This document shows positions 1 through 28,659 of a stretch of 32,000 nucleotides of DNA, one piece after another. Position 1 is the stretch's first letter. Every line of letters begins with the position of its first letter. The stretch comes from Sinorhizobium meliloti (GTDB lineage Bacteria > Pseudomonadota > Alphaproteobacteria > Rhizobiales > Rhizobiaceae): the NCBI RefSeq assembly GCF_017876815.1, contig NZ_JAGIOS010000003.1:180001-212000 (forward strand), read 5' to 3'. The translations under genes were made by a program, and so were the position numbers. The notes under the pieces were generated by a model. That model ran no database searches, was not told where the DNA came from, and saw only the letters and a list, made by a program, of their open reading frames with translations.

Positions 1-298
1 GTTCCAATTGACGTAAGTGCTGAAAGCGGGCCTCAAACCCCTTTGAGGTCGCCGAACTGCATCGCGTCTGGCCGTCCGCTAAGCATGAAAGCTTCGCTCA
101 ACCGACCCCGGCTTGAAGTCGTTGTCCCACGAACCGCTATTAACTGGAGCCGTTTTGTCTAGTATTGTATGTTTCCCCGGTTTTGTACGATTCGCCGGAA
201 ATCTCCACGCACTTTCTGGATATCGGCTGCTTTGCCGTTGACGCCGTTTAATTAAGCTGAGAATGGGGGTCAACTTAAACGTTGAATGGAGTGTGGCG

Positions 299-3371: not shown

Positions 3372-4213
3372 TGACCGACCATCTGCTCGTCGCCAGCGGA
3401 TTGACGGCCGGTTATGACAAAACCGAAATCCTGCATGCGCTCGACCTCACCATTCCCCCGCGCAAAATCACGGTGATCGTCGGCGCCAATGCCTGTGGCA
3501 AGTCCACGTTTCTCCGCACGCTCTCGCGGTTAATCGCGCCCAGCAAGGGGCAAGTTCTCCTCGACGGCAAATCCATCCACCGGACACCCTCGCGAGATCT
3601 CGCCCGGACGCTGGGTCTGTTGCCGCAATCGCCGATCGCGCCGGAAGGCATCACAGTGGTCGACCTCGTCAGCAGGGGACGGCATCCGCATCAAAGCCTG
3701 TTTTCCGGCTGGACGCGACGGGACGACGAGGCGGTCGACAGTGCGCTTAGGGCGACAAAGACATTCGACCTTGCCGATCGGCCGATCGACGAGCTCTCCG
3801 GCGGCCAGCGGCAGCGGGTCTGGATCGCCATGGCACTCGCCCAGCAAACCGACATCCTGCTGCTCGACGAGCCGACGAGCTTTCTCGACATCAACCATCA
3901 GATCGAGGTGCTCGATCTCCTGACCGATCTCAACAGCGCGCGTCGAACTACGGTCGTCATGGTGCTGCACGATCTCAACCTTGCTGCCCGCTACGCCGAC
4001 CATCTCGTGGCGATTGCCGGTGGGCGCGTGCACATTTCGGGCACTCCGGAAGAGGTGCTCACCGAAGAGACCGTGCGGCATGTTTTCGGCCTTGATAGTC
4101 GCGTCATCAGCGATCCCACGTCGGGTCGGCCAATCATGCTACCGATCGGGCGACACCGGATGGCCGTCATCGACGACATGGGCGATGCACCACAAAAGGA
4201 GAGGAGCGCATGA
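3371..4213 (+). CDS. Iron-siderophore ABC transporter ATP-binding protein (FepC/FhuC-like)
   Basis: ATG 3371 overlaps the upstream stop. The protein has Walker A (GANACGKST), the ABC signature (LSGGQRQR) and Walker B (ILLLDEPT). The 2588 start in the ORF track is an out-of-context extension across the permease gene. Confidence 0.9.
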   Translation: MTDHLLVASGLTAGYDKTEILHALDLTIPPRKITVIVGANACGKSTFLRTLSRLIAPSKGQVLLDGKSIHRTPSRDLARTLGLLPQSPIAPEGITVVDLVSRGRHPHQSLFSGWTRRDDEAVDSALRATKTFDLADRPIDELSGGQRQRVWIAMALAQQTDILLLDEPTSFLDINHQIEVLDLLTDLNSARRTTVVMVLHDLNLAARYADHLVAIAGGRVHISGTPEEVLTEETVRHVFGLDSRVISDPTSGRPIMLPIGRHRMAVIDDMGDAPQKERSA

Positions 4214-5280
4214 ACGCAGTTCATTCATTCAAGCTGTCCGGCGTAGCGGTCCCCGGTAGTGCCGCTGACATGCTCGACGAGATCTGCGAGCATTTTGTCG
4301 AACATGCCAAGGTCGAACGGAGAGACGACCTGGCGGTGCTGCAGAGCGAGCTAGGTGTCGCGCGCATCAGCATCGAAAACGGGCGCTTGTTGATCGAGCT
4401 CGACTGCCCGACGCGTGAAAAGCTGCACATGAGCCGCACGATCCTGGCGGAACATCTTTTCTATTTTGCCGAAGGCCAGCCTTTCGAATTGACCTGGTCG
4501 GAACCGACGTCCTTGTCGGTGCTCCCGAGCCTTCATGAGGTGACAGTCGTCTCGGCGCACGACGTCACTCCGCACATGCGTCGCGTGATCTTTTCCTGCG
4601 TCGACGTAACGCCCTTTGTGGGTAGCGACATGCATGTCCGACTGCTGGTGCCGCCGAAGGGCAAGCCGCCGGTCTGGCCCGGCTACCGGGAAGACGGCCG
4701 CATCGCCTGGCCGGAAGGCGAGAACGAGCTTCTGGTTCGTGTCTATACCATCCGCGCCGTCGATTTGGATCGGAGCGAGTTGTGCATCGATTTCTTGCAG
4801 CATCCCGCTCCTGGCGTACCGACTCCGGGTGCAGACTTTGCGCGCGATGCGCAGCCCGGAGACGTGGCCGCCCTGCTAGGGCCAGGCGCAGGCGGTCTGC
4901 CAGCGGAGCGATCCATTTTACTAATCGGCGACGAGAGCGCTCTACCAGCCATAGCACGTATCGCGGCCGAAGCTCCGGCTGAAACGCATATACGTGCCAT
5001 CATCGAGGTTGAGGACAAGGCGGAAGAGCAACCACTTCTGACTGATGGCGTGCTCGACGTGCGTTGGTTGCACAGGGGGAGCTACCCGGGAGATGCTGCC
5101 GATATTCTCGTGTCCGAGGCGAAAGCAGCGATATCGGCCGTCGATGACGAGACGTTTGTTTGGGTTGCGTGCGAAAGAACAGACATACGAGCTATCAGGA
5201 CCTTCCTCAAAGCTCGGCAACATGATCGCAGGAAGATGTATGTCGCTTGGTACTGGGAAAGAGACGTGAAAATCGCATGA
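4210..5280 (+). CDS. DUF2218-like N-terminal domain fused to a siderophore-interacting FAD-binding reductase (SIP/ViuB family)
   Basis: There is an ATGA overlap with the ATPase stop and an AGGAGAGGAG Shine-Dalgarno (SD) sequence. The N-terminal ~100 aa (EICEHFVEHAKVERRDDLAVL...LLIELDCPT...) looks like DUF2218. The remainder has SIP features (HEVTVVSAHDVTPHMRRVIF, the RVYTIR FAD motif, and the C-terminal NAD-binding-like LLIGDESALPAI). Confidence 0.8.
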   Translation: MNAVHSFKLSGVAVPGSAADMLDEICEHFVEHAKVERRDDLAVLQSELGVARISIENGRLLIELDCPTREKLHMSRTILAEHLFYFAEGQPFELTWSEPTSLSVLPSLHEVTVVSAHDVTPHMRRVIFSCVDVTPFVGSDMHVRLLVPPKGKPPVWPGYREDGRIAWPEGENELLVRVYTIRAVDLDRSELCIDFLQHPAPGVPTPGADFARDAQPGDVAALLGPGAGGLPAERSILLIGDESALPAIARIAAEAPAETHIRAIIEVEDKAEEQPLLTDGVLDVRWLHRGSYPGDAADILVSEAKAAISAVDDETFVWVACERTDIRAIRTFLKARQHDRRKMYVAWYWERDVKIA

Positions 5281-5747: not shown

Positions 5748-6806
5748 CTATCCTCTGTACCAGAGAAGGCCGACCACGATGAAGGCCGCAAGAAATGCGG
5801 TTGCCAGCAATGCGAGCGTGACATGTGACGGTCTGATGCTAGCGAACTCCTTTACGGACGTTTTCAAGCCGGCGGCTCCCAGCGCAATTAGAAGTAACCA
5901 ACGCGAAAGATCGTTGGCGACGTCGCCTGCTGCCGCCGGCAGAAATCCCATCGATTTGAGGGCCGCGAGGAATGCAAATCCCAGGACGAAACCGGGTATC
6001 ACCTGGCCCAATTTTTGTGGCTTCTGACCGGCGCCTGCTCCCAACACTGTGACCATGATCAATACGGCAATTATCGTTGGCGCAAGCAGGCTTACGCGAA
6101 CAATCTTGACGAGTGTCGCAATCTGACCAGTCTCCTCCGACATTGCGAAGCCGGCACCTACGACCTGAGCAACATCGTGGATCGTTCCACCGATGAACAC
6201 GCCGGACTCTTTAGCGTCGAATTGCAGATGGGACGCGAGCACCGGATAGAGCACCATCGCTGATGTCGACAGGAGTGTTATTGCCACAATCGTCAAGGCG
6301 AGATCCCGGTCGCTGTTCTGTCGCGGAGGAAGAACGGCATTTAAAGCTACAGCCGCTGAAGCTCCGCAGATGGCGACGGCTCCTCCCGTTAGCAGTGACA
6401 GTCGCCAATCCATGCCGGCGAACTTACCGACAATAATGGCGAACAAGATTGTGCAAGCAAGCGCGGTAGTAACCAGGCAGAGCAGGCTAACGCCCAGGTC
6501 GCTCAATACCTCCAACGACACCCGTGCACCCAACAGTGCCACGCCGAAACGAAGCACAGCGCGGCTGGCAAAATGGATGCCTGGAACGGTCCTGGCACCG
6601 CTTTCCGACAAAAAGTTGAGAGACATGCCCAACAGAAGCGCCATCAAGGTCGCCGGAGCCCCATAGTGCTCGGAAAGAAATTGAGCCGAGATTGCGATCA
6701 ACACTGCCACGGCAAGGCCGGGAAAATACGATACTACGCGTGTCCTTAAGTTCTGGGTTGGGCGAGGGATATCGCTCGTGGCGACTTGTTCAGTTCGATC
6801 GCTCAC
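5748..6806 (-). CDS. YeiH/UPF0324-family inner-membrane protein (putative sulfate exporter family transporter)
   Basis: The protein is 352 aa and polytopic throughout. It starts at a GTG with AAGGG upstream. It is divergent from a LysR regulator, as in the E. coli yeiE-yeiH arrangement. Confidence 0.8.
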   Translation of the reverse strand: MSDRTEQVATSDIPRPTQNLRTRVVSYFPGLAVAVLIAISAQFLSEHYGAPATLMALLLGMSLNFLSESGARTVPGIHFASRAVLRFGVALLGARVSLEVLSDLGVSLLCLVTTALACTILFAIIVGKFAGMDWRLSLLTGGAVAICGASAAVALNAVLPPRQNSDRDLALTIVAITLLSTSAMVLYPVLASHLQFDAKESGVFIGGTIHDVAQVVGAGFAMSEETGQIATLVKIVRVSLLAPTIIAVLIMVTVLGAGAGQKPQKLGQVIPGFVLGFAFLAALKSMGFLPAAAGDVANDLSRWLLLIALGAAGLKTSVKEFASIRPSHVTLALLATAFLAAFIVVGLLWYRG

Positions 6807-6990: not shown

Positions 6991-7005
6991 ATCGCCATTT
7001 GCGAT
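6991..7005. promoter_or_regulatory. Perfect dyad ATCGC-N5-GCGAT (contains T-N11-A) in the yeiH/LysR divergent region; candidate LysR-type regulator (LTTR) box
   Basis: The sequence atcgccatttgcgat was read directly. It sits 6 nt upstream of the LysR ATG at 7011. Confidence 0.3.
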
Positions 7006-7010
7006 CGAAG

Positions 7011-7892
7011 ATGAATCTGGACCTGATCGACACTTTCCTTGACCTACTCGAGACCGGCAATTTCAATCGAACTGCCGAGCGGCTGGAAACGACGCAGTCC
7101 ACCATCAGCGGGCGCGTCAAGGCGCTCGAGCAAGCTGTCGGGGCGAAGCTTTTTCAGCGCGGGCGGGCCGGAGCGATCCCGACGCCGTCCGGGCTTCGAT
7201 TTGAGCAGCATGCGCGGTCTCTGAAGGCTGGCTGGGCCCATGCCCGCCGGGATATTGGCGGGCTGGAGCGCTACGAAGGCTCGCTACGGGTCTCCGGACA
7301 GTTCAGCTTGTTGCGCACGCTCTTCCTGGACTGGATCGGCGAGCTGCACGCAACCAACAAGCGCGTCGCGCTGCACCTCGAGGCGGACTATTCGACGCAA
7401 ATCATCTCTGATCTGGCCAATGGCGCAATCGACATTGGAGTCGTGTTCGCTCCGAAATTCCTTCCTGACCTCAGCATCGAGGAGATTGGTGCCCAGAGGC
7501 TGGTGATGGTATCCACCGAATTCGCGAACGTGGGCAATGTCACCGCCGACCGGTATATTCGCGCATCCTACACGGCTTACATTGAGCGTGCTCACGCCGA
7601 GCTCCTGCCCCATCTCGCCCATCCGGCTCTGACCGTGGGCTATGAGGAATTGGCCGTTGGCATTATGAAACGTTTCGGAGGCACAACCTACCTTCCGGAG
7701 CATGCCCTCGATTATCTCGCAAGTTCCGGTGTTTCGGCCAAAGTCGTTGAGGACGCTCCCGACATTCACCAGCCAGTTTATGTGGCGACGCAGAGGCGTC
7801 GCAAACACGATCCGTTAGTGCACCGTGCAATTCTTGCGCTGAAAAGCGTTGCAGATCGCCATTTTAAGATTTCGAAGGTGAAGGATGCCTGA
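7011..7892 (+). CDS. LysR-family transcriptional regulator (YeiE-like by context)
   Basis: The N-terminal winged helix-turn-helix (HTH) reads MNLDLIDTFLDLLETGNFNRTAERLETTQSTISGRVKALE, followed by an LTTR effector domain. The ORF-track start at 6999 is a TTG, and ATG 7011 is preferred. Confidence 0.85.
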   Translation: MNLDLIDTFLDLLETGNFNRTAERLETTQSTISGRVKALEQAVGAKLFQRGRAGAIPTPSGLRFEQHARSLKAGWAHARRDIGGLERYEGSLRVSGQFSLLRTLFLDWIGELHATNKRVALHLEADYSTQIISDLANGAIDIGVVFAPKFLPDLSIEEIGAQRLVMVSTEFANVGNVTADRYIRASYTAYIERAHAELLPHLAHPALTVGYEELAVGIMKRFGGTTYLPEHALDYLASSGVSAKVVEDAPDIHQPVYVATQRRRKHDPLVHRAILALKSVADRHFKISKVKDA

Positions 7893-7935: not shown

Positions 7936-9000
7936 TCATGCGTCGATGGATACGGAGCCCATTGGGCGGCTGCAGCAGGCGAGGACAAATCCCTCTGACC
8001 TCTCGCACGCCGACAGTCCGCCAAGATCCTGCATGTCCACCATTCCCTGTGTCAATTTCACCTTGCAGCTTCCACAAACTCCCTGGTGACAGGAACTCTC
8101 AATCCAGATGCCAGAGTTCAGTGCTGCTTCCAAGATTGTTTCCCCTGGCGCGCAGGTTCCGTGTTTGCCAGAGAGTGAAAAGTATACCTCGTCACCTAAC
8201 TTGTCCGGTTCTTCGATCGGAATCCTCTCGCCGAAGCTCTCCTCGTATACTGCCCGGATCGGCACCTCTGCCGCCATGGCGCGAGCGGCTTTCATAAAGC
8301 CCTCCGGTCCGCACATGAAAATCTCGCGTTGCGGAAGGTCCGGAACAAGCGACTGCATTAAAGAGGCACTTATCGTTCCCATCCTCCCACGGAAGCAAGT
8401 TTCTTCGCCGGTTTCGCCCACCACCATATGAACCTTGATGTTGGAAAAACGCCTGGCGATGAATTCGAGCTGATCTCGAAAAATAATGTCCTTCGGGGTA
8501 CGTGCGAAATGGACGAACTCGACGTCGACCTGATCGACGACGTCGGTGATGTATTGCAGCATCGACATTACCGGTGTCACGCCCGAGCCGCCGGAGAGTA
8601 AAAGCGGCTTCCGGGAGGGAATGTCAAAATAGTTGAAGCGGCCGGCTATGTCGGCAATTTCGACGGACATACGGGGGCGCATGTGGTCGTTCAGCCAGTT
8701 AGACACCAGCCCGCCAGGCACGCGCTTGACGGTAATCTGGACGTTGTGAGGACGGGTGGGCGTTGAACAGATGGAATAGGCGCGGGGGCAGAGCTTACCT
8801 TCGATCTCGAATTTGAAGCTGATATATTGCCCGGGTTTGAAATCGAAGCTCCTGCTCTGGCTGTCTTCAAACACGAACGTTTTGCTATCATGCGTCTCGT
8901 CGATCACGGCTTTGCATACCAATGTTGCCGGACCTCCGCGGTAGCATGGTTGCTGGTTGGCTGCGGAAAGGGAGAAGGGAAAGCTTGCTTCCATAAGCAT
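7936..9000 (-). CDS. FNR-like FAD/NAD(P)-binding oxidoreductase with C-terminal plant-type 2Fe-2S ferredoxin domain (GbcB/CntB-type 'hybrid-cluster' reductase)
   Basis: It has the flavin motif RAYSICS, the motif VKRVPGGLVSNWL, the NAD motif LLLSGGSGVTPVMSM, and the C-terminal cluster motif CHQGVCGSCKV...ACC. ATG 9000 has GAGG 8 nt upstream. The GTG at 9009 is the maximal ORF. Confidence 0.85.
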   Translation of the reverse strand: MLMEASFPFSLSAANQQPCYRGGPATLVCKAVIDETHDSKTFVFEDSQSRSFDFKPGQYISFKFEIEGKLCPRAYSICSTPTRPHNVQITVKRVPGGLVSNWLNDHMRPRMSVEIADIAGRFNYFDIPSRKPLLLSGGSGVTPVMSMLQYITDVVDQVDVEFVHFARTPKDIIFRDQLEFIARRFSNIKVHMVVGETGEETCFRGRMGTISASLMQSLVPDLPQREIFMCGPEGFMKAARAMAAEVPIRAVYEESFGERIPIEEPDKLGDEVYFSLSGKHGTCAPGETILEAALNSGIWIESSCHQGVCGSCKVKLTQGMVDMQDLGGLSACERSEGFVLACCSRPMGSVSIDA

Positions 9001-9199
9001 AAAGGGCACCTCTGACTCTGTGCCACAGTTATATCAAGCTCCGCAAAGTGGATTGAGCGGGGCAAAACCCTCTTTTCAATCGTAAAATGCGATCATTAGG
9101 GGGTTAATTGCGCCACAGGCCGGGCAAACGTGCCCCAGGCACTGACCGCGTCGACATCATAATGAAATACGACTGCCCGGAAAGAAGCGCCAGGTCGTC

Positions 9200-9308
9200 G
9201 GAACGCTCCCCCCGTGAGCTGTCGTGAGGTCTCACGGGATTTTTTGCAGCGTCTTGCCCACGAAAAGGCCGACAGCGAGAGCCAATCACGCGTCCCAGGA
9301 ACGCTCCC
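9200..9308 (+). repeat. Two direct copies of GGAACGCTCCC (9200-9210 and 9298-9308) bracketing a terminator-like hairpin
   Basis: The exact 11-nt repeat was read directly, with partial similarity extending 3 nt upstream. It contains CUCCC, which is complementary to the GGGAG in the downstream SD (GGGGAGGGAG, 9423-9432). Confidence 0.6.
9211..9245 (+). terminator. Rho-independent-terminator-like hairpin inside the 430-bp divergent intergenic region
   Basis: The stem is CCCGTGAG (9211-9218) paired with CTCACGGG (9231-9238), with a 12-nt loop. It is followed by ATTTTTT (9239-9245). The U-tract exists only in the + orientation. Confidence 0.55.
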
Positions 9309-9438
9309 GTAGTTCGATCGCAGTTTACGATCAATAACCCAAGTTTGTCGCCGTTTATCGATTGAGCAATTTGTTGTCCTATGTCGCTGCGTCATTCACG
9401 CGCATCGAGTTTCGACCCACTTGGGGAGGGAGAATATC

Positions 9439-10521
9439 TTGTTCATCGTCGATAGCGATTGCCATAACTACTGGTGCAGCGCGACCGTCCTGGAGCCGTA
9501 CATGGACGGCTTCTTCAAGGACATGTTCGTTCGCGGCGAAAAGACTGGGCCACGCGGCGCATTTCCGCACGGCCATCGTCCCTGGTTTCATCCAGAAGGA
9601 TTTTCGCGGCATGACGTCAACCCGGTCGAGGAAGACGACAATTACGCGATCATGAAGGAAAAACACCTCGATAAGTACAATATCGATGTGGCGATTCTAA
9701 CCGGCGACGAGCCGATCGAAGCGTCTACTTTGGCAAACGCCCATTATGCCAATGCGCTCTGTAGGGCGTACAACGACTACATGATCGATTACTGGCTACC
9801 GAAGGACAGTCGGTTCTGGGGGTCGATCATTGTTGCCCCGCAGGACCCAAAACTGGCGGCCGAGGAAATCCGACGTCTCGGCTCGCATCCGCGAATTGTC
9901 CAGGTTCTGGTAAGCCATGGCGCCCAGCGGCCCTACGGCGACCCATTCTACCATCCCATTTACGAGGCTTGCGCCGAAATGGGGCTGCCGTTCGCCATGC
10001 ACCTTGGTGGTCAGGGTGGTGTGAACTCGACGCCTATCGGAGCAGGACCGTCGACGTTCTTCTGGGAAACCCATGCGATACTTCCACAGTCCGCAATGAC
10101 GCATATGGCTTCCCTGATCGCCCAAGGCGTCTTTGAGAAATGGCCAAGCCTCAAAGTCGTGATCATCGAGTGCGGGGTGGCATGGGTGCCCTCGGTGCTA
10201 TGGAGACTGGACGCCAACTATAAGGCACTGCGCAAGGAGACACCCTGGTTGAAGCGGTTGCCCTCGGAGTATTTCAAAACGAACATTCGCATGTCGACCC
10301 AACCACTCGAGCAGCCGGAAAATGTTCAGCATCTTTGGGCAACCCTGGAGGCGATGGACGGGGAAAACACACTGCTGTTCGCGTCCGACTATCCGCATTG
10401 GGATTATGACGACGTCACGAAGCTGCACATTCCCCCTGCCTGGCGCGAGAAGGTACTCGGCCTGAACGCGCTCGACGTTTACCGGCGCATTCCCCGGCCG
10501 GCCGCGATCGCAGCAGAGTGA
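9439..10521 (+). CDS. Amidohydrolase_2 (ACMSD/LigW-type metal-dependent hydrolase/decarboxylase) family protein
   Basis: TTG 9439 lies 6 nt after the strong SD GGGGAGGGAG. The protein starts with FIVDSDCHNY and has an internal FAMHLGG and a C-terminal FASDYPHWD, which are typical PF04909 landmarks. No in-frame ATG would retain the N-terminal metal motif. Confidence 0.8.
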   Translation: MFIVDSDCHNYWCSATVLEPYMDGFFKDMFVRGEKTGPRGAFPHGHRPWFHPEGFSRHDVNPVEEDDNYAIMKEKHLDKYNIDVAILTGDEPIEASTLANAHYANALCRAYNDYMIDYWLPKDSRFWGSIIVAPQDPKLAAEEIRRLGSHPRIVQVLVSHGAQRPYGDPFYHPIYEACAEMGLPFAMHLGGQGGVNSTPIGAGPSTFFWETHAILPQSAMTHMASLIAQGVFEKWPSLKVVIIECGVAWVPSVLWRLDANYKALRKETPWLKRLPSEYFKTNIRMSTQPLEQPENVQHLWATLEAMDGENTLLFASDYPHWDYDDVTKLHIPPAWREKVLGLNALDVYRRIPRPAAIAAE

Positions 10522-10532
10522 GGGGGCGGGCA

Positions 10533-10886
10533 ATGGCTTCAAAACAGTTTGCATGCAAGGCTTCGGAGGTTCCTGCCGATGCTGCCAAGATCATCAAACT
10601 CGGCAATTTGTCGCTTGGTATCTTCAGGGTTGGGGACGGATATCACGCGCTTCTGAACGTGTGCCCCCACAAGGGAGCAGCGCTTTGCCAAGGACCCGTT
10701 TGCGGGACCACGAAACAGACGGACAAGGCGGAGTTTGTTTATGAGCGGGCAGGTGAGTTGGTCCGTTGTGCTTGGCACGGATGGGAATTCGATATCCGGA
10801 CGGGCGAGTTCCTGGTCGATCCCCGTGTGAAAGCCCGCACATTCCCGGTTTCCGTCGAAAGCGAAGACATCTTCGTTCACGTTTAG
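10533..10886 (+). CDS. Stand-alone Rieske [2Fe-2S] protein (NirD/ferredoxin-like, 117 aa)
   Basis: Both cluster-binding boxes are present: [11 protein letters not shown] and CAWHGWEF. The ATG lies 12 nt after the amidohydrolase stop and is preceded by GAGGGGG. Confidence 0.85.
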
Positions 10887-10905
10887 CGAAAAAGAGGCGT
10901 CGCCT

Positions 10906-12375
10906 ATGCAAAGTTACCAAATTCGCGAAATGGCGACGCCGCTCTGTCAGCCGGCCGCTTCACATTTTATCGACGGCACCTTTATTGAGGATCGCACCGG
11001 TCCTGAGATCCTCTCCGTCAATCCGGTGGATGGTGAGATCATCGCCAAATTGCACGGGGCGACTTCCTGCATCATCGAGAAGGCAATTGCCTCGGCGAAA
11101 CGGGCGCAGAAAGAATGGGCTCGGAAAGAGCCGGCGGAGCGGGGTCGCGTCCTCAGTCGCGCCGCTGACATCATGCGGGCGCGAAACAGGGAACTGTCGG
11201 TTCTCGAAACGCGCGATACAGGCAAGCCAATTTCTGAAACACTGGTGGCGGACGCCGCTAGCGGTGCCGATTGCCTCGAGTATTTTGGCGCAATCGCGGC
11301 GACACTTTCGGGAGACAGCATCCAGTTCGGAGAAGATTGGGTCTACACACGGCGGGAGCCGCTTGGGGTCTGTCTCGGAATAGGGGCCTGGAACTACCCC
11401 ATCCAGATTGCGGCCTGGAAGGCAGCCCCCGCGCTTGCTTGCGGGAATGCCATGATATTCAAGCCGTCGGAAGTGACCCCATTGTCAGCGCTCAAGCTCG
11501 CGGAAATTCTGACTGAAGCGGGGCTTCCTCCTGGCGTTTTCAATATTGTGCAAGGTGCCGGTGATGTTGGGGCTGAGCTCGCCACCCATCCGGCGATCGC
11601 CAAAGTCTCCCTCACCGGCTCGGTCAAGACTGGCGCGAGGGTCGCCTCGGCCGCCATGGCCGGCATCCGGCCAGTAACGATGGAGCTTGGTGGAAAGTCT
11701 GCGCTGATCGTCTTCGACGATGCAGATGTTGAGGCAGCCGTCAGCGGCGCAATTCTCGGGAATTTTTATTCGGCCGGCCAGATCTGCTCAAACGGTACGC
11801 GCGTTTTCCTGCAGCGCGGAATAAGGGAAGCGTTCCTTGCGCGCTTGCTGGCCCGGGTCGCGGCTTTGAAGATTGGTGATCCGATGCACGAGGAGACCGA
11901 CATCGGGCCGCTAGTCAGCGCCGCCCATCGCAACCGGGTTGCCACATACGTCGCCCGCGCCGAGGTTGAGGGAGCATACCAGATGACGCCTCCGCGCAAG
12001 CTTCCACCAGGGGATGCCTGGCACGAGCCCGTAGTCTTCACGAATGTTACGGATTGGATGACGCTTGCTCGGGAAGAAGTGTTCGGTCCGGTCATGGCCG
12101 TCCTGGACTTCGATGACGAGCAAGATGTCGTCGCAAGAGCCAATGCAACGGACTTCGGATTGGCAGCAGGCATATTCACGAGAGACCTCGTTCGTGCCCA
12201 TAGGTTGGCGGCTGAGCTCGAAGCCGGAACCGTGTGGATCAACGCTTACAACTTGACGCCAGCTGGCATGGCGTTCGGCGGAATCAAGAGATCAGGCATC
12301 GGGCGCGAAAACGGGCGTGTCGCGATCGACCACTATACCCAGCTCAAGTCTGTGTTCGTCAGCATGCAGACATAA
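10906..12375 (+). CDS. NAD-dependent aldehyde dehydrogenase, betaine-aldehyde dehydrogenase (BetB)-like
   Basis: Long colinear similarity to the BetB pattern as I recall it ([67 protein letters not shown]). The catalytic Glu (MELGGKS) and Cys (GQICSNGTR) are present. Confidence 0.85.
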
Positions 12376-12568
12376 CACGAGAATTGACACGGTCGACGGC
12401 CCAGAACCTCAGCCAATCGGCCGTTTTCTCATACGCGAATAGGGGCCCGGCGTTCGAGCAGTCTCCCGAGGGGGAGGAAGGGTTCGTCAGGGTCCTATTA
12501 CGGCCACAGCGGCAGCGGTCACGCTGTGAGGCCGAACGAGGAGAGGCCGCAGTTCAAGGGGAACCAGA

Positions 12569-13570
12569 ATGTTTGGTAAATTGCTCGCACCTGCCTGTTT
12601 TGCAGTTGGCCTTACCAGCCTGACACAGGGTGCTTTCGCGGAGGAATGTGGCGACGTCGTTATCGCCAATATGAATTGGCAGTCGATCGATGTCCTGGCG
12701 AATATCGACAAGATCATTCTTGAAAACGGATATGGGTGTTCGGCGGAAATCACCATCGGTGACACCGTTTCGATCATGACGTCGATGATTGAAAAGGGAG
12801 AGCCGGACATAGCACCGGAAGCGTGGCTCAATGCTTTGCCTGAGATTGTCTCGAGAGGCATCGCCGAAGGGAAGCTGATATCGGCTGGCAACGCCCTGAG
12901 CGATGGCGGAATCCAGGGCTGGTATATCCCAAAGTACATTGCCGACGCTCACCCGGAGATCAAGACGGTTTCCGACGCGCTGAAGCACCCGGAACTCTTC
13001 CCGGCTCTAGAGGACAGTTCCAAGGGCGCAGTCGTCAACGGTCCATCAGGTTGGGGCGCATCGACTACAACCAGCCAGCTTTACAAGGCTTACGACGGGG
13101 ACGCCAAAGGCTTTGTGCTGGTTGACCCAGGCTCGGCGGCGGGTCTGGACGGTTCAATCGTCAAGAACTACGAACGGAAGATCGGCTGGTTCGGCTACTA
13201 CTGGTCACCCACTTCGTTGCTCGGCAAATACCCAATGGTCAAGCTTGATTTTGACGCGCCACACAACGCAGCGGAATGGAAACGTTGCAACACGGTGGTC
13301 GATTGCGAAGATCCGAAGGTAAACGATTGGCCGACCGATAAGGTGGAGACACTCGTCACTCGCGAGTTCAAAGAGCGTGCCGGTGCGGCGATGGATTACC
13401 TGAAGACGCGGCGCTGGGATAACGCAACGCTGAACAGCCTCTTAGCCTGGATGACCGACAACCAGGCGACGGGCGAAGATGCTGCAAGATACTTCCTGGA
13501 GAAGAACCCCGAGATTTGGACAAAGTGGCTTTCTCCCGAGATCGCGGAGAAGGCGAGATCGTCGCTCTGA
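12569..13570 (+). CDS. ProX-type glycine betaine/quaternary-amine ABC transporter substrate-binding protein (orphan)
   Basis: It has a signal peptide (MFGKLLAPACFAVGLTSLTQGAFA) and Trp-containing ProX-like segments (NMNWQSIDV, IQGWYIPKY, GPSGWGAS, WFGYYWSPT). AGGGGA forms the SD. Confidence 0.8.
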   Translation: MFGKLLAPACFAVGLTSLTQGAFAEECGDVVIANMNWQSIDVLANIDKIILENGYGCSAEITIGDTVSIMTSMIEKGEPDIAPEAWLNALPEIVSRGIAEGKLISAGNALSDGGIQGWYIPKYIADAHPEIKTVSDALKHPELFPALEDSSKGAVVNGPSGWGASTTTSQLYKAYDGDAKGFVLVDPGSAAGLDGSIVKNYERKIGWFGYYWSPTSLLGKYPMVKLDFDAPHNAAEWKRCNTVVDCEDPKVNDWPTDKVETLVTREFKERAGAAMDYLKTRRWDNATLNSLLAWMTDNQATGEDAARYFLEKNPEIWTKWLSPEIAEKARSSL

Positions 13571-13584
13571 CTTGTAAAACCACG

Positions 13585-13619
13585 ATCCGCCGGCGGTTGT
13601 CGGCGGATTACCCTTTTTG
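13585..13619 (+). terminator. Rho-independent terminator downstream of the SBP gene
   Basis: The stem is ATCCGCCG (13585-13592) paired with CGGCGGAT (13601-13608), with an 8-nt loop, followed by TACCCTTTTTGT. Confidence 0.7.
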
Positions 13620-13758: not shown

Positions 13759-14649
13759 TCACTCCGACAGGAATGAATTGATTAGTTCGGCCGCCTTTTC
13801 GGGCCGCTCCCAAAACATATTGTGACCAGCGCCTGGGAAGGTTTCAAACCGAGCTTTAGGAAACGCCGCCTTTAGTTTCGCTTGCTGCGGCGCGTTCATC
13901 AACTGGTCTTGATCCCCCCAGAAAATCATGACCGGCGCTTTGATCAAAGACGATATCTTCCCGAGATCACCTGTCGTCGTACCCCACAGGACACCCTTCC
14001 AAACGTGGATGGGCACGGCAGCGCTCTCTTCACGCTCAGGCTTGATGAACCTCTCGTCAACCGGGTTCGGGTTCCAGTACCAGTCCGTCATAAACTTGCC
14101 GTTTGGATCGATAGGCGGCTGGAGCGGCTTGATATTATCCCAAAGCCAAGTGCCAGGTCCGCCGCCCGTGTTGAGTGTCGAAGAGATCAAAACGACCTTT
14201 CTGACCTTCTCAGGGTGCTGCGCCGCCAGCATCTGAACGGCCAGCGATCCCAGCGAATGCCCGACCACGTCGGCCTGCTCAATCTTCATCGCCTCCAAAA
14301 AAAGGAACGCGTCGTTTGCGAAATCGAGATACGTGTAGCAGCACTCCGGGGCGCTCGATTTCCCATGGCCGCGAAGGTCGATGGCGTAAATATGATGGTT
14401 CTTCAGATACGGGGCGACCAATGACCAGCTTCGCGAATTATCAGTATAGCCGTGAATGAGCAGTAGGGGCTTCCCTTCGACGTTGCCCATTTCGGAGTAT
14501 GCCAGCTTGATGCCGTTTGGCAGGTCTACGGTCTTCTTGGCCGCCGCCCATTCCGTTTGCGTCGGAACGGGAATTTCCGTCGCGAATCCAGGCCCGGCCG
14601 CGAACAGCAAACCGACTGCCAATGCCAATTTTAGGATGGTGGTTGTCAT
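13759..14649 (-). CDS. Secreted alpha/beta-fold hydrolase (esterase/lipase-like)
   Basis: It has a signal peptide (MTTTILKLALAVGLLFAAGPGFA), an oxyanion HG (LLIHGYTDNS), a nucleophile elbow (GHSLGS) and a C-terminal His (GAGHNMFWE). The SD GAGGGAGAA precedes the ATG. Confidence 0.85.
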   Translation of the reverse strand: MTTTILKLALAVGLLFAAGPGFATEIPVPTQTEWAAAKKTVDLPNGIKLAYSEMGNVEGKPLLLIHGYTDNSRSWSLVAPYLKNHHIYAIDLRGHGKSSAPECCYTYLDFANDAFLFLEAMKIEQADVVGHSLGSLAVQMLAAQHPEKVRKVVLISSTLNTGGGPGTWLWDNIKPLQPPIDPNGKFMTDWYWNPNPVDERFIKPEREESAAVPIHVWKGVLWGTTTGDLGKISSLIKAPVMIFWGDQDQLMNAPQQAKLKAAFPKARFETFPGAGHNMFWERPEKAAELINSFLSE

Positions 14650-14700: not shown

Positions 14701-14749
14701 ACACTTGAACTCGGCGCTCGATTTGTCAATAACGATTCAGGAGCATGTG

Positions 14750-15361
14750 ATGGCACTTACAAAAATCAGCGATATCCGGAGGCGGGAACTGCGGCGGGCC
14801 GCCGTGGAAGTCATGAAGCGTGAGGGCGCCGCCGGGACGACGTTGGAAAAAGTGGCTCAAGAAGCCGGAGCCTCGAAAGGTATTGTCCTCCACTATTTCC
14901 GAAACAAGCAGGAGCTGTTCGAAGAGGCGATGCGCGAGGCCAATGCGGGCCTGAGGGATGACGTCGTGAGACGGCTAAAGAAGGCCCGCTCGCCTATCGA
15001 ACGCATCTGGGCAATCGTCGAAGCAAACCTTGGTGAAGACGTTTTCAAACCACCCCACGGGCACGCTTGGCTGTCGCTATGCGCTGAGGCTCCGCGAGAG
15101 CCGCAGCTGGCAAGATTGCAGAGTATTTTCCATGCGCGGATGCATTCGAACCTCATGTCGGGGTTTCGTTCATTGGTTCCACACTCGCAAGCCGAGCGAC
15201 TATCCCTGTCAATGTCTGCTCTCATCGATGGCCTCTGGGTCCGGCTGGGCATCGGCGATCGGACTATGACATCGTCAACAGCTACTTCACTCGCCCGCGA
15301 CCTCTTGACCAACGCTCTCCCGACTATTGCTATTCCGGACGTGACCAAGTGCGAGCAATGA
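14750..15361 (+). CDS. TetR-family transcriptional regulator, BetI-like
   Basis: ATG 14750 follows CAGGAG. The TetR HTH reads TTLEKVAQEAGASKGIVLHYFRNKQELF. BetI-like C-terminal segments are present (WLSLCAEAPREPQLARLQSIFHARMHSNL, ALIDGLWVRLGIG). Confidence 0.8.
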   Translation: MALTKISDIRRRELRRAAVEVMKREGAAGTTLEKVAQEAGASKGIVLHYFRNKQELFEEAMREANAGLRDDVVRRLKKARSPIERIWAIVEANLGEDVFKPPHGHAWLSLCAEAPREPQLARLQSIFHARMHSNLMSGFRSLVPHSQAERLSLSMSALIDGLWVRLGIGDRTMTSSTATSLARDLLTNALPTIAIPDVTKCEQ

Positions 15362-15504: not shown

Positions 15505-16500
15505 TCAAGTTCCAGGTGACAATTGATGCGAAGTAAAACGCTGACGATACTCGGCAGGGGTCAGCCCAATGATACGGGTGAAGATTTTCCGAAAGGAGCT
15601 CGGATCACTGTAGTGTACTTTCCAGGCGATGGCATCGACAGGATCGCGCGTAAACTGGAGTAGGTCGCGTGCCTTATTGATACGCAAACGCTGGACATAC
15701 TCGCCGGCCGTATGACCGGTTGCCTTTTGGAATCGCCGCATGAAGGTTCGCGGTTCCAACCCTGCATGCTCTGCCAGCACGGCAAGGCCCATGTCCTTCC
15801 CGCCGGTGGCCTGAAGCCAGTGTTGAACCTTCAAGATCGCGTCGTCACCGTGATTGAGACGGGGAGAGAAGGCGCTGTAGTAGCTTTGTTCCCTGCCGGG
15901 CGGGTCGACGAGGAAGGCTCTTGCTGTTTCGACCATGATCGTCGGGCCGAGAAAACGCTCGATCAGTATCAGGCTGAGGTCGATCCATGCCATCACGCCG
16001 CCGGCGGTCAGGATGTCGCCGTCATCGATGATCAGACGGTCCGTGTTTACATTGATGTCGGGAAAACGCGAGACAAGGTGCTCCTCATAGCTCCAGTGGG
16101 TGGTCACGGTGCGTCCCGCAAGGAGTCCTGTCTCTCCCAACAAAAAGGCGCCTTTGCAGATTGAGCACAGGCCCGCGCCCTTCGAATGTTCAGAGCGAAG
16201 CCAGTCTGCATAGTACCTCGCCTCCCTCTCCGGTAGCGGATCGCCGAGGCCCGGAGGAATGACAATAACAGTCGGACGGTCACCTAGCGATACGGGATCG
16301 GACGAGAAAACCCGTTCAGGCGTGCGTTTACCGGTTGCTCGCGTCCAATGACTTACGCGAAGAGGATGACTGACGCCGTGCCGCTGGCGAGCGATGCCTG
16401 CGGCGGCGGTCAGAAGATCAGTCATGCCCAATACAGCCGCGGCTTGAGCGCCGTCGTAACGGAGGATTCCGATCTCCAATGTATCTTCCATGCTGTCCAT
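15505..16500 (-). CDS. GlxA-family (DJ-1/PfpI-like domain + AraC HTH) transcriptional regulator, the GbdR/CdhR architecture
   Basis: The N-terminal amidotransferase-like domain includes LCSICKGAFLLGETGLL. The C-terminal AraC HTH includes LAEHAGLEPRTFMRRFQKATGHTAGEYVQRLRINKARDLL...SDPSSFRKIFTRIIGLTPAEYR. The start is uncertain: ATG 16500 has AGGGG upstream, and 16491 and 16533 are alternatives. Confidence 0.8.
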   Translation of the reverse strand: MDSMEDTLEIGILRYDGAQAAAVLGMTDLLTAAAGIARQRHGVSHPLRVSHWTRATGKRTPERVFSSDPVSLGDRPTVIVIPPGLGDPLPEREARYYADWLRSEHSKGAGLCSICKGAFLLGETGLLAGRTVTTHWSYEEHLVSRFPDINVNTDRLIIDDGDILTAGGVMAWIDLSLILIERFLGPTIMVETARAFLVDPPGREQSYYSAFSPRLNHGDDAILKVQHWLQATGGKDMGLAVLAEHAGLEPRTFMRRFQKATGHTAGEYVQRLRINKARDLLQFTRDPVDAIAWKVHYSDPSSFRKIFTRIIGLTPAEYRQRFTSHQLSPGT

Positions 16501-16585
16501 ACCGCCCCTGTATTTGTCAATTATGCCACTCATATGGTCGATCGCGATCTGTTAAATCAAGACATAGTCCTGGAAAGGATATCCT

Positions 16586-17131
16586 ATGAGCAAGCGTGCG
16601 ATCATCGTCGTTGACCTGCAGAACGACTACCTGGCAACAGGCAAATTTCCCTTGGTGGGCATTGACACAGCACTTGAAAACGCAGCACGCCTCGTCGACG
16701 CGGCTCGTCGGTCCGGCGATCTCGTCGTCAATATCCGCCACGAGAGCCCAGCCGGTGCACCATTCTTCGTGTCGGGCACGGAGGGAGCGGAGATAATTCC
16801 CAACATCGCTCCGCAGCATGGTGAAGCGGTTGTCACCAAACGATACCCCAATTCATTTCGCGAAACCGAGTTGGCCTCCCTGCTGTCTTCTGCCGGTGTC
16901 GATGAAGTGACAGTCATTGGCGCGATGAGCCACATGTGCATCGATGCGACCGCCAGAGCAGCCTCCGATCTCGGCTACAAGACGACGGTTGTTGAAGACG
17001 CCTGCGCTACGCGCGACCTCGAGTTCCGAGGCGAGGTCGTGCCCGCCGCGAAAGTCCACGCTGCATATATGTCCGCTCTGGCCTTCGGGTACGGACAGGT
17101 GGTTTCGACCCGTGACTATCTGGCAAAGTGA
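16586..17131 (+). CDS. Isochorismatase-family cysteine hydrolase
   Basis: It has IIVVDLQNDY (catalytic Asp region) and GAMSHMCIDATARAA (Cys nucleophile). It is divergent from the GlxA regulator, which is a common pairing. Confidence 0.85.
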   Translation: MSKRAIIVVDLQNDYLATGKFPLVGIDTALENAARLVDAARRSGDLVVNIRHESPAGAPFFVSGTEGAEIIPNIAPQHGEAVVTKRYPNSFRETELASLLSSAGVDEVTVIGAMSHMCIDATARAASDLGYKTTVVEDACATRDLEFRGEVVPAAKVHAAYMSALAFGYGQVVSTRDYLAK

Positions 17132-17698: not shown

Positions 17699-18643
17699 CT
17701 ATTCGCGCGCGATCTTCTCGACGAAATAGCGCGGGATCTGGTCCCGTTCGCGTCGGCGGTAGAACTCCATGCAAAACCTCACAAAGGCCTTGAATCGGCG
17801 AGAAACGTGCCGGCGCCGCGAATAGATAAGGTTGATTGCCGTTTCGCGCGACCGCCATTCCGAAAGGACGGGCACCAAAAGCCCGCTCTGGCACTCCGTT
17901 TCGACAAAGAAGCCCGGAAGATAGGCGATGCCTTGTCCGGCGACGGCAAAATATTTGAGGGTCCAGTAGTCGTTCGCTGTCAGCGCGGCAGTAAGCAGGA
18001 TTTCCGTCTCCGACCCGCCCGGTCGCGAAAGGTACCACGGCTGCAACCTCGTCGTGCTGCGAAAGATGAGACCCCGGTGCAGCGCCAGTTCGTCTTCGTT
18101 TGCCGGTTGATCGTGTTGTGCCAAATAATCAGGGCTGGCATAGAGGCCGTAGGAAGCCGTTGCCAGCCGGCGGCTGACGTAATCAACGTCGGATGGCTCG
18201 CCCCAATGGAAGATACCATCCAGCGCCATGTCGGAAACGTCGGTAAACGGCTGGCGGGCGGAGAGGAACACGACGTCGAGGATGACCTGCGGATAGGTCT
18301 TCTGGAAGGCGTAAAGCAATTCGGAGGTGACGGTCGTGCCGAACTCGCCCGTTGAGCCGACGCGCAGCGTCCCCGCCACCGCCTTATGCATTTCGGCCAT
18401 TGCGGTGACCGCATCGTCGCAGCTCGCTCGGATCTTCCGAGCATGGCGCAGGAGTTCCGAGCCGGCATCGGTCAGGTGCAGCTGGTGGCCCTCGCGTACG
18501 AACAGCTCGACACCGAATTGGTCTTCCAGTTGGCGGATGCGATGGCTAAGGGTCGACTTCGGCAATCGATGAAGGCGCGACGCTGCCGAAATAGACCTTG
18601 CATCCGCTACCTTCACGAAACAGTCGATTACTGAAAGGTCCAT
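17699..18643 (-). CDS. LysR-family transcriptional regulator
   Basis: The HTH reads MDLSVIDCFVKVADARSISAASRLHRLPKSTLSHRIRQLE. ATG 18643 is preferred over the 24-codon upstream extension. It is divergent from the deaminase/permease operon. Confidence 0.85.
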   Translation of the reverse strand: MDLSVIDCFVKVADARSISAASRLHRLPKSTLSHRIRQLEDQFGVELFVREGHQLHLTDAGSELLRHARKIRASCDDAVTAMAEMHKAVAGTLRVGSTGEFGTTVTSELLYAFQKTYPQVILDVVFLSARQPFTDVSDMALDGIFHWGEPSDVDYVSRRLATASYGLYASPDYLAQHDQPANEDELALHRGLIFRSTTRLQPWYLSRPGGSETEILLTAALTANDYWTLKYFAVAGQGIAYLPGFFVETECQSGLLVPVLSEWRSRETAINLIYSRRRHVSRRFKAFVRFCMEFYRRRERDQIPRYFVEKIARE

Positions 18644-18657
18644 TGGTCGTTTCCATT

Positions 18658-18677
18658 TCGTACAACATGTTGGACGA
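18658..18677. promoter_or_regulatory. 20-bp near-perfect palindrome TCGTaCAACATGTTGgACGA (9 of 10 pairs)
   Basis: Read directly. It lies 15 nt upstream of the LysR ATG and about 83 nt upstream of the deaminase ATG, making it a candidate LTTR site. Confidence 0.4.
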
Positions 18678-18759
18678 CACGTTCGATAATAGGCCTGGTT
18701 CGGCCAGTTGTTCAAACGTAAACCAGCTGGAATACTCCTTTCTGACGAGGGAGGTCTGA

Positions 18760-20562: not shown

Positions 20563-20609
20563 GAGATCCGTCAAGCGACTCGATGATGTTCAAAATGGGG
20601 AGGAACACT

Positions 20610-22010: not shown

Positions 22011-22082
22011 TCTCATCCGGTGGTGTCGCGTAGCGGCGCCGCCGGTTCGTATCGGTGCTTGGATTAGGAAGGATCGGCAGAA

Positions 22083-28532: not shown

Positions 28533-28659
28533 TGATCTTCTCCGCAGCCTGTTACCAATGAAATCGAGCGATGCAGAGTGCAGATATTTCGGTCGGAACG
28601 AAGGCACTATGAGCCGCGAGTCGCTATATATCTCTGCTTGTCATCCCTACGAGGGTTCC

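Follow-up and report, generated by a model that had tools for sequence, protein, structure and literature searches.

The 2-aminoisobutyrate monooxygenase of Rhodococcus wratislaviensis (AibH1H2/AibG/AibF) is built from an NADH reductase, a small Rieske protein and a dinuclear hydroxylase of the PF04909 fold, and the passage of electrons from NADH through AibF and the Rieske ferredoxin AibG to AibH1H2 was demonstrated experimentally in 2021 (PMC7782822); the cofactor of AibH1H2 is Mn/Fe (PMC10401708). SfbO and three orphan enzymes (D3EI84, W7L2Y2 and B6JH23), which were found via their Rieske neighbours, belong to the same group of amidohydrolase-related dinuclear oxygenases (AROs), and all four have redox-active two-metal sites (PMC10811679). 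Crystals of SfbO contain a tetramer of a single protein; the enzyme hydroxylates a C-H bond beside a nitrogen and so yields an aldehyde. Together with D3EI84 and W7L2Y2 it makes up the structurally characterised low-potential (Mn-capable) AROs. A study of 2026 defined the family by two motifs, D-x-H at the N-terminal end, on the first beta strand, and D-x-P-H-x-D/E in the C-terminal part (PMC13154177). The first motif supplies ligands of metal site 1, and the second, which has at least about 200 residues before it, those of metal site 2. Characterised hydrolases and decarboxylases of PF04909 have neither motif, and the predicted AROs, about 17,000 in number, are mostly mislabelled (PMC13154177). 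Here we analyse a 32,000-nucleotide stretch of Sinorhizobium meliloti DNA (contig NZ_JAGIOS010000003.1, positions 180,001 to 212,000; hereafter the window), in which a 5.6-kb region appears to encode such an oxygenase together with its redox partners and a BetB-like aldehyde dehydrogenase (ALDH).

The 5.6-kb region is identical (100%) to part of pSmeSM11c of S. meliloti SM11 and 99.7% identical to pSymA of strain 1021 (975705-981340), and it occurs in 46 Sinorhizobium megaplasmid records. With the regulator gene beside it, it comprises the following features.

6999-7892, plus strand: LysR-family regulator (HTH_1 and LysR_substrate domains)
7936-9000, minus strand: NAD(P)H-dependent reductase, an FNR-like FAD/NAD module with a C-terminal plant-type 2Fe-2S domain (PF00970/PF00175/PF00111)
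9439-10521, plus strand: ARO gene, predicted terminal hydroxylase (PF04909, 188 bits)
10533-10886, plus strand: stand-alone Rieske [2Fe-2S] ferredoxin of 117 aa (PF00355, 51 bits) with C-P-H and C-A-W-H boxes
10906-12375, plus strand: BetB-like NAD(P)+ aldehyde dehydrogenase, here called betB2 (PRK13252, 742 bits; cut-off 593)
12569-13570, plus strand: orphan periplasmic binding protein of the OpuAC family, DmpX-like (PF04069, 201 bits), after a gap of 193 nt behind the ALDH gene

An earlier, sequence-only reading had proposed the last five of these genes, and all are found at the positions it gave. The domain order that it assigned to the reductase, FAD_binding_6 and NAD_binding_1 followed by a C-terminal Fer2 at 7936-9000 on the minus strand, was recovered as well; its suggested domain searches matched PF04909, PF00355, PF00970/PF00175/PF00111 and PF04069, and the ALDH passes the NCBIfam BetB model PRK13252. 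It was also right about the unusual start of the PF04909 gene: the mechanical open reading frame (ORF) begins at 9421, and the true start is the TTG at 9439, 6 nt past GGAGGGAG, giving the same 360 aa as PGAP and the homologues. For the reductase, the longest ORF begins at a GTG at 9009. The tightly packed operon that it described is borne out by gaps of 11 nt between the ARO stop and the Rieske start and of 19 nt between the Rieske stop and the ALDH start, and no plus-strand terminator-like sites were found inside the ARO-Rieske-betB operon. In an identical copy, PGAP names the genes, in order, YeiH family protein, "hybrid-cluster NAD(P)-dependent oxidoreductase", "amidohydrolase family protein", "Rieske (2Fe-2S) protein" and betB, and after betB an ABC transporter substrate-binding protein, an alpha/beta hydrolase, betI, a GlxA-family regulator and a cysteine hydrolase.

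By its motifs and its matches, the PF04909 protein is an ARO and not a hydrolase. A PDB sequence search returned as its closest solved relatives D3EI84 (8SM7, E 1.5e-86), SfbO (8SM6, 3.2e-77), W7L2Y2 (8SM9, 3.8e-64) and B6JH23 (8SM8, 2.5e-61), together with AibH1/H2 (3.5e-50 to 4e-39), and the best non-oxygenase match was the decarboxylase LigW at 6.4e-24. The D-x-H motif is D7-C8-H9 (360-aa numbering) and aligns with D30-V-H32 of SfbO, and the D-x-P-H-x-D motif, D317-Y-P-H320-W-D322, is identical to 337-DYPHWD-342 of that enzyme. By alignment, H188 and E244 are the remaining histidine ligand and the bridging carboxylate, matching 'vHfg' and 'fiEhd' of SfbO; with the motif residues they make up six ligand positions, all of which are invariant in 24 orthologues (58-90% identity). 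The markers of the low-potential class are present too, with a small residue at gamma3 (A315) and aromatic residues at gamma4 (W321) and gamma5 (Y323), the last being a position whose aromatic residue has been proposed to stack on the Rieske partner. We therefore predict that the enzyme belongs to the low-potential, Mn-capable, Rieske-dependent class and that it depends on Mn/Fe or Fe2. At gamma1, a hydrophobic position in this class, it has Cys8; Val is the consensus of its orthologues, and Val or Ile is found in the low-potential AROs with solved structures. Position 280 of SfbO is Asp in the alignment and Tyr in the paper that names it, and this residue was not used.

These data, read together with the published biochemistry of the family, strongly support the view that the cluster encodes a three-component monooxygenase of the ARO type. 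In the proposed chain, NAD(P)H would reduce the flavin/2Fe-2S reductase (7936-9000), the reductase would pass electrons to the 117-aa Rieske ferredoxin (10533-10886), and the ferredoxin would hand them singly to the two-metal site (Mn/Fe or Fe/Fe) of the TIM-barrel ARO, which would activate O2 and hydroxylate a C-H bond. The best PDB matches of the Rieske protein are Rieske ferredoxins of multicomponent oxygenases. The best NCBIfam match of the reductase is the GbcB model NF058606 at 300 bits (E 2e-89), which is under the cut-off of 500, and the protein thus fails the test for a GbcB equivalog.

The sequence-only reading had remarked on the lack of a canonical Rieske oxygenase alpha subunit, and indeed none is found in the 32-kb window among ORFs, domain matches and PGAP calls; no protein joins a Rieske domain to a mononuclear-iron domain there, the sole Rieske protein being the one of 117 aa. 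The oxygenase of the cluster is nevertheless not missing, since the PF04909 protein has the ARO motifs, the ARO matches and the class markers. Of the two options that had been offered, a split chain from reductase to Rieske protein to PF04909 metalloenzyme is strongly supported by sequence, motifs and neighbourhoods. The accompanying suggestion that the fold would here be put to an undescribed use is wrong: dinuclear oxygenases with this fold have been described since 2019-2024. The other option saw in the PF04909 protein a metal-dependent decarboxylase or hydrolase, and in the Rieske protein and the reductase the partners of a canonical Rieske oxygenase whose gene is elsewhere. PF04909 hydrolases and decarboxylases such as LigW, LigI, gamma-resorcylate decarboxylase and ACMSD have a mononuclear active site or one without metal. 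Both the name of the Pfam family and the label given by PGAP, "amidohydrolase family protein", point to this option, and characterised PF04909 decarboxylases such as LigW do match, if weakly (E 6e-24). The two ARO motifs, absent from the characterised hydrolases and decarboxylases (PMC13154177), are however both present, solved AROs match some 60 orders of magnitude better (1e-86, against 6e-24 or worse for decarboxylases), and a small Rieske gene adjoins the ARO gene in 77 of 80 loci, here at a spacing of 11 nt. On motifs and PDB ranking we reject a hydrolase or decarboxylase; this reading, which we judge highly improbable, is essentially excluded.

Compared with the described AROs, the cluster has features of its own. 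AibH is a heterotetramer of two paralogues, whereas the window cluster has a single ARO gene; the Aib genes are likewise clustered with a transporter gene, but the Aib system has an amino-acid substrate, other downstream enzymes and an actinobacterial host, and the reductase of the window differs in its FNR-like-then-Fer2 order and its divergent transcription. SfbO, whose Rieske partner is SfbR, and the orphan AROs resemble the window enzyme more closely (E 1.5e-86 to 2.5e-61), with one ARO gene each, D-x-H and D-Y-P-H-W-D motifs and aromatic residues at gamma4 and gamma5. None of them has been linked to betB, BetI, BCCT or YeiH genes. The two-component Rieske oxygenases for quaternary amines (GbcAB, CntAB, Stc2 and plant choline monooxygenase), which act on onium substrates, share with the cluster the domain content of the reductase and neighbourhoods of BCCT, LysR and ALDH type. 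These enzymes combine Rieske cluster and mononuclear iron in one alpha subunit of about 370-430 aa, whereas the window system has a separate 117-aa Rieske protein and a predicted dinuclear site in an unrelated fold.

The arrangement is conserved far beyond Sinorhizobium. A scan of representative genomes returned 80 ARO loci, among which the Rieske gene was the neighbour of the ARO gene in all but three. We then considered a close set of 26 proteobacterial loci with an ARO at least 70% identical, many of them on plasmids, from Sinorhizobium, Ensifer aridi, Mesorhizobium, Rhizobium, Aestuariivirga, Ruegeria, Leisingera, Paracoccus, Pseudohalocynthiibacter, Pseudomonas and Marinobacterium; in GC-rich loci ORFs were chosen with weight on GC3, as choice by length alone gave antisense artefacts. 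All 26 loci have the Rieske gene, all 26 have a homologous LysR gene, and 21 of the 26 have a homologous reductase gene within about 2 kb of the ARO gene. These counts define LysR, reductase, ARO and Rieske protein as the conserved unit. The sequence-only reading had asked whether the amidohydrolase-Rieske-ALDH trio co-occurs, which it does just in some lineages, the universally conserved unit being that of four genes; the ALDH was accordingly dropped as a candidate for a universal partner of the ARO, being adjacent in some lineages only.

The ARO of the window is 87-92% identical to those of Rhodobacterales and other rhizobia (loci L003, L005, L082 and L091-L094), whereas in the same comparison the Rieske, reductase and ALDH partners are 64-76% and the LysR proteins 41-46% identical; for Sinorhizobium against Rhodobacterales, the three partners are at 64-71%. 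By this measure the catalytic subunit is under unusually strong constraint relative to its partners. The many plasmid-borne copies of the module suggest horizontal spread. On a plasmid of Pseudomonas sp. MPC6 (L095:475-21041), the entire module is flanked by two IS6 transposase genes that carry one protein accession, an arrangement that looks like a composite transposon. It contains a metal ABC importer, the reductase, LysR, ARO and Rieske genes, choX, a LysR gene, a TauD/GBBH-like dioxygenase, a YeiE-like LysR gene, yeiH and an MFS transporter. ABC importers of the ZnuA/ABC-3 type stand beside the reductase or the ARO module in two Pseudomonas islands (L007:5089-7295 and L095:5117-7685) and in Marinobacterium (L083:1135-4777). 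This transporter family includes uptake systems for Mn, Zn and Fe, and its presence is consistent with an Mn requirement of a low-potential ARO. Homologues at 60-65% identity, in Chloroflexi, Actinomycetota and a gammaproteobacterial symbiont, were also tried as a source of substrate clues, and their contexts (EamA, IclR, ureidoglycolate lyase, other reductases) proved unrelated and uninformative.

The constant presence of a LysR homologue beside the ARO gene (35-96% identity, 26/26 proteobacterial loci) is matched by a recurrent palindrome, ATCG-N7-CGAT, of the LysR T-N11-A type. Three copies (no strand assigned) lie in the control regions of the cluster.

6991-7005: palindrome ATCGCCATTTGCGAT, in the intergenic region of yeiH and lysR, overlapping the lysR start
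9079-9093: palindrome ATCGTAAAATGCGAT, about 80 nt upstream of the reductase start
9317-9331: palindrome ATCGCAGTTTACGAT, 122 nt upstream of the ARO start

The window has eight copies of ATCG-N7-CGAT where 1.45 would be expected, including these three. The reductase-side copy is kept in S. psoraleae as ATCGTTAAATGCGAT. A copy at 94-124 nt upstream of the ARO start is present in 15 of 18 LysR-linked loci and in none of six homologous loci that have no LysR gene, so the palindrome at 9317-9331 is likely the LysR operator of the oxygenase operon. Because the box is enriched, is placed in three control regions and is conserved upstream of the ARO gene, yeiH/lysR, the reductase gene and the ARO-Rieske-betB operon probably form the single regulon of a LysR protein that recognises it. 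In the spacer between the reductase and ARO genes (about 9125-9290), S. meliloti has insertions of 44 and 43 nt (87 in total) relative to S. psoraleae. The second insertion holds a stem-loop with a T-run at 9222-9237, and the conserved flanks hold both LysR-type boxes. No Rfam family was matched anywhere in the window, the 430-nt reductase/ARO spacer included.

The third gene of the operon, betB2, has its best PDB match in Agrobacterium BetB (3R31, 650 bits) and retains the catalytic motif GQIC294. On the stricter model TIGR01804 it scores 652.7 bits, just under the cut-off of 668.6, and much lower scores are obtained with other ALDH models (SafD 268 bits, SSADH 356 bits). A BetB-like ALDH gene directly follows the Rieske gene in S. 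meliloti, S. psoraleae, E. aridi, Leisingera and Pseudohalocynthiibacter, and Paracoccus has an ALDH remnant in the equivalent position. The protein of the window is 67-68% identical to the ARO-linked ALDHs of Leisingera and Pseudohalocynthiibacter and 60% identical to a bet-operon BetB; all four ARO-linked ALDHs score 651-663 bits on TIGR01804, compared with 732 for the bet-operon enzyme. Judged from these comparisons, the ARO-linked ALDHs are a subgroup of their own that extends across orders. No GMC oxidoreductase of the BetA type was found beside the ARO-linked betB genes in the loci examined.

Further genes around the cluster, and the terminator that follows it, are these.

5748-6806, minus strand: YeiH-family membrane protein, putative sulfite/sulfate exporter (PF03601, 209 bits)
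13584-13609, no strand assigned: bidirectional intrinsic terminator, an 11-bp stem with a T-run, which ends the binding-protein gene
13759-14649, minus strand: secreted alpha/beta hydrolase (Abhydrolase_1, 130 bits) with a signal-like sequence at the N-terminus of its translation
14705-15361, plus strand: BetI-type TetR repressor, the second betI on pSymA (TIGR03384, 238 bits, cut-off 201; PRK00767, 169 bits, cut-off 118)

The terminator had been noted from the letters of the sequence and is confirmed as that of the binding-protein gene itself. The binding protein is closest in the PDB to RnDmpX, which binds dimethylsulfoniopropionate (DMSP; 7YLE, E 2.3e-63), and keeps six of the eight pocket residues of RnDmpX (W35, T64, W84, W152, Y200 and W202), among them all four of the Trp cage, with E113 replaced by Q and A153 by G. 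Its orthologues in E. aridi (84%) and Rhizobium sp. J15 (80%) stand beside a choline-sulfate cluster comprising a LysR protein that passes the choline-sulfate regulator model, a ChoX-type protein, a choline sulfatase and TauE. E. aridi has, directly next to this cluster, an ARO module that is 99% identical. The yeiH gene is probably part of the same LysR regulon as the ARO module. YeiH homologues accompany the module in S. psoraleae, Ensifer aridi, Leisingera, Pseudohalocynthiibacter and two Pseudomonas islands. The gene is placed in one of three ways: Sinorhizobium and Ensifer have it divergent from lysR, in Leisingera and Pseudohalocynthiibacter it closes the series ARO-Rieske-betB-yeiH, and in Pseudomonas it is within the IS6-flanked islands. 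YeiH is needed for sulfite resistance in Salmonella, sulfite resistance is the role ascribed to the family (PMC12880088), and a homologue in Bordetella has been proposed to be a sulfite exporter. The alpha/beta hydrolase and betI genes are divergent with a spacer of 55 bp, and this betI has no betA or betB next to it. The hydrolase may be a choline-regulated secreted esterase of choline esters, with a possible link to the module.

In other genomes, too, genes for the transport and metabolism of betaine-type compounds recur next to the module. BCCT carriers are found beside it in five lineages (Ruegeria, Leisingera, Paracoccus, Marinobacterium and a metagenome-assembled Thermoleophilaceae), in two Pseudomonas islands the Rieske gene is followed by one for a binding protein of the ChoX type, which passes the choline model, and one Mesorhizobium locus has a complete ABC system of the ProX type in that place. 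In other Mesorhizobium loci (ARO identity 77-78%) the transporter that follows is of the Opp/Dpp type. BetI-type regulators are encoded near further copies of the module, and in M. comanense the module is 3.4 kb from a canonical betI-betC-betA-betB operon. The Pseudomonas islands also carry a TmpA/BBOX-like dioxygenase gene. A 207-aa HD-domain protein is encoded next to ARO-Rieske pairs, after the Rieske gene in four Mesorhizobium-group loci and also in E. aridi, Chloroflexi and Actinomycetota, at the following places.

L011:3872-4495, L012:11490-12107, L013:11497-12120, L014:11491-12114, L023:948-1493 and L029:11483-12028: 207-aa HD protein
L096:9949-10572 and L026:212-757, minus strand: 207-aa HD protein

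It is 86-92% identical among rhizobia and about 52-54% identical in Chloroflexi and Actinomycetota, has only weak similarities, to PhnZ (PDB 4MLM, E 6e-5) and TmpB, and may be a second oxygenase that acts on the ARO product. Neither this gene nor a TmpA-like gene was found in the 32-kb window.

Given this gene context, the substrate of the ARO is probably a choline-type onium compound, Me3N+-CH2-CH2-X. The BetB-like ALDH in the operon, the BetI, BCCT, ChoX-type, DmpX-type and choline-sulfatase neighbours and YeiH all point to such a compound, and the gene neighbourhoods, with their betaine-type transport, regulators and ALDH, fit the earlier guess of a quaternary-amine substrate. In the model we favour, the ARO would hydroxylate the carbon that bears X, giving betaine aldehyde as its hydrate or after loss of X, and the co-transcribed BetB2 (10906-12375) would oxidise betaine aldehyde to glycine betaine. 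The simplest case would be X = OH, that is choline. Plant choline monooxygenase converts choline to betaine aldehyde hydrate with ferredoxin as electron donor, and the ARO would then carry out the same reaction and replace BetA. Alternatively, X may be O-sulfate (choline-O-sulfate) or sulfonate (N,N,N-trimethyltaurine), in which case sulfate or sulfite would be released oxygenolytically in the manner of AtsK or TauD; such a release would account for the YeiH exporter and for the DmpX-like binding protein, whose ligand would have an onium-C-C-anion structure. The chemistry has precedents in TmpA/TmpB, PhnY*/PhnZ and TauD/AtsK, which hydroxylate a carbon bearing a phosphonate, a sulfonate or a sulfate ester in a 2-aminoethyl or 2-(trimethylammonio)ethyl compound and yield glycine betaine, or an aldehyde and an oxyanion. 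The hydroxylases TmpA, PhnY* and TauD/AtsK are, however, Fe/2-oxoglutarate enzymes and not AROs. The link is one of analogy and neighbourhood only; genes for TmpA/BBOX-like and PhnZ/TmpB-like HD proteins accompany ARO orthologues in other genomes but not the window ARO. Taken as a whole, and leaving the identity of X aside, the model in which betaine aldehyde is formed seems to us evenly poised between right and wrong. It is possible, though we put this forward tentatively and at somewhat less than an even chance, that the ARO clade represents an unrecognised route to glycine betaine, with a Mn/Fe (or Fe2) dinuclear C1-hydroxylase converting a choline-type compound to betaine aldehyde. The route could take the form of a fourth, non-homologous choline-oxidising enzyme beside BetA, choline oxidase and plant choline monooxygenase, or it could be a pathway in which choline-O-sulfate is desulfated, or N,N,N-trimethyltaurine desulfonated, oxygenolytically and in coupling with BetB2 and the YeiH sulfite/sulfate exporter.

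Several observations weigh against this model. Among the close orthologues, no more than roughly a quarter to a third have the ALDH and YeiH as companions; others are found beside peptide transporters of the Opp type, a dimethylglycine-dehydrogenase-like gene (Aestuariivirga) or the PhnZ/TmpB-like HD protein, and this diversity of contexts suggests that the clade may use more than one substrate, or one that we have not considered. The scores of the ARO-linked ALDHs just under the TIGR01804 cut-off leave room for an aldehyde other than betaine aldehyde. S. meliloti already has betICBA on its chromosome, which would make a choline or choline-sulfate route redundant. The sulfate-binding residues R232 and R235 of SfbO are His and Leu in the window ARO, which argues against a sulfonate pocket like that of SfbO, and we have rejected such a pocket here. 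Lastly, our literature searches found no paper that links AROs or PF04909 to choline, betaine or DMSP; a search of the searchable full text for the S. meliloti locus tags and betB2 gave nothing relevant.

The same facts can be arranged around other substrates. The ARO could demethylate glycine betaine or another betaine oxidatively, as a functional analogue of GbcA or Stc2 that hydroxylates an N-methyl group and produces formaldehyde and dimethylglycine, with BetB2 just supplying glycine betaine from betaine aldehyde made elsewhere. The GbcB model is the best curated match of the reductase (E 2e-89), but the score of 300 bits is far under the cut-off of 500. A dimethylglycine-dehydrogenase-like gene (DAO and GCV_T domains) follows the Rieske gene directly in Aestuariivirga and lies about 9 kb away in a Mesorhizobium locus (L009), and a GcvT-family gene is near the Leisingera module; the order ARO-Rieske-betB(-yeiH), however, pairs the oxygenase with a consumer of aldehyde and not with a demethylation chain. 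It would also be less economical to co-induce an upstream BetB with the enzyme that uses its product, and YeiH would be left without an explanation. As to the organism, a second route of glycine betaine demethylation is reported for S. meliloti in the part of a 2025 paper that cites Barra et al. 2006, but that paper gives the missing route to MtgBCDE (PMC12478193). On balance we consider demethylation unlikely. A CntA- or SfbO-like cleavage of a C-N (or C-S) bond, in which hydroxylation next to the onium centre would release trimethylamine (or dimethylsulfide) and an acid aldehyde for the ALDH, is in our opinion more doubtful still, and we rate it as very improbable. SfbO, a homologue of the ARO (E 3e-77), does carry out N-alpha hydroxylation and dealkylation of aminoethylsulfonates, the binding protein is closest to a DMSP-binding protein, and the carnitine operon of Acinetobacter, with LysR, oxygenase, reductase, ALDH and BCCT genes, is similarly laid out. 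Yet the ALDH is BetB-like (742 bits) and not of the succinate-, malonate- or sulfoacetaldehyde-semialdehyde type (SafD 268 bits, SSADH 356 bits), enzymes of the BetB type accept aldehydes that retain the onium group, and no genes for the handling of trimethylamine are nearby.

Another way to read the neighbourhoods is to regard their quaternary-amine genes as coincidental or lineage-specific, so that the substrate of the conserved LysR-reductase-ARO-Rieske unit would be an unrelated metabolite, small and polar. It might be derived from an amino acid or a peptide, or it might be a phosphonate, of which 2-(trimethylammonio)ethylphosphonate, handled jointly with the HD protein, is an example. The Opp/Dpp-type transporter genes that follow the Mesorhizobium orthologues (77-78% identity), the HD protein gene after the Rieske gene in four Mesorhizobium-group loci and its copies in E. 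aridi, Chloroflexi and Actinomycetota, the TmpA/BBOX-like dioxygenase of the Pseudomonas islands and the unrelated contexts of the 60-65% homologues would all be in line with this. Coincidence is however at odds with the recurrence of betaine-family transport, regulation and enzymes in at least six independent arrangements near close orthologues, and the phosphonate variant is itself a compound of the type Me3N+-CH2CH2-X and so overlaps with the favoured betaine-aldehyde model. This reading appears rather unlikely to us.

Elsewhere the window has genes with other apparent functions. An iron-siderophore ABC uptake operon extends from 263 to 5280; its last gene encodes DUF2218 fused to a siderophore-interacting reductase (FAD_binding_9 and SIP), for which the PGAP label is just "DUF2218 domain-containing protein". 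At 15505-17131, a GlxA/FtrA-type AraC regulator (DJ-1/PfpI and HTH_18) is divergent from an isochorismatase-family cysteine hydrolase; the regulator matches the GbdR model weakly (71 bits, cut-off 480) and is not a GbdR orthologue. An NCS2 permease gene between two adenine deaminase genes (18760-23870), with a divergent LysR gene at 17699-18715, seems to form an island of purine salvage or catabolism unrelated to the ARO cluster. Further on, an ORF of the ROS/MucR family (28116-28607, minus strand) overlaps the start of an LtrA-family ORF (28483-29838, plus strand) by 125 nt, and one of the two start codons has probably been called too far upstream.

For the annotation of such clusters, our analysis corrects a systematic mislabel, since their oxygenase is the very protein called an "amidohydrolase". 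About 17,000 predicted AROs carry that label, and only a handful have known native substrates. The locus described here offers a good starting point for adding to them: it is in the best-studied rhizobium, on a dispensable megaplasmid, and it has a clear regulon with candidate operators, a candidate for the enzyme that consumes the product, and a few substrates that lend themselves to testing. Should the proposed new route to glycine betaine be true, it would provide a native substrate and a genetically tractable host for a family whose closest solved members are orphans. Solving the locus would give a conserved ARO clade of rhizobia, roseobacters and pseudomonads a place in physiology, and it could add a step to the cycling of choline, choline-sulfate and betaine in soil and sea.

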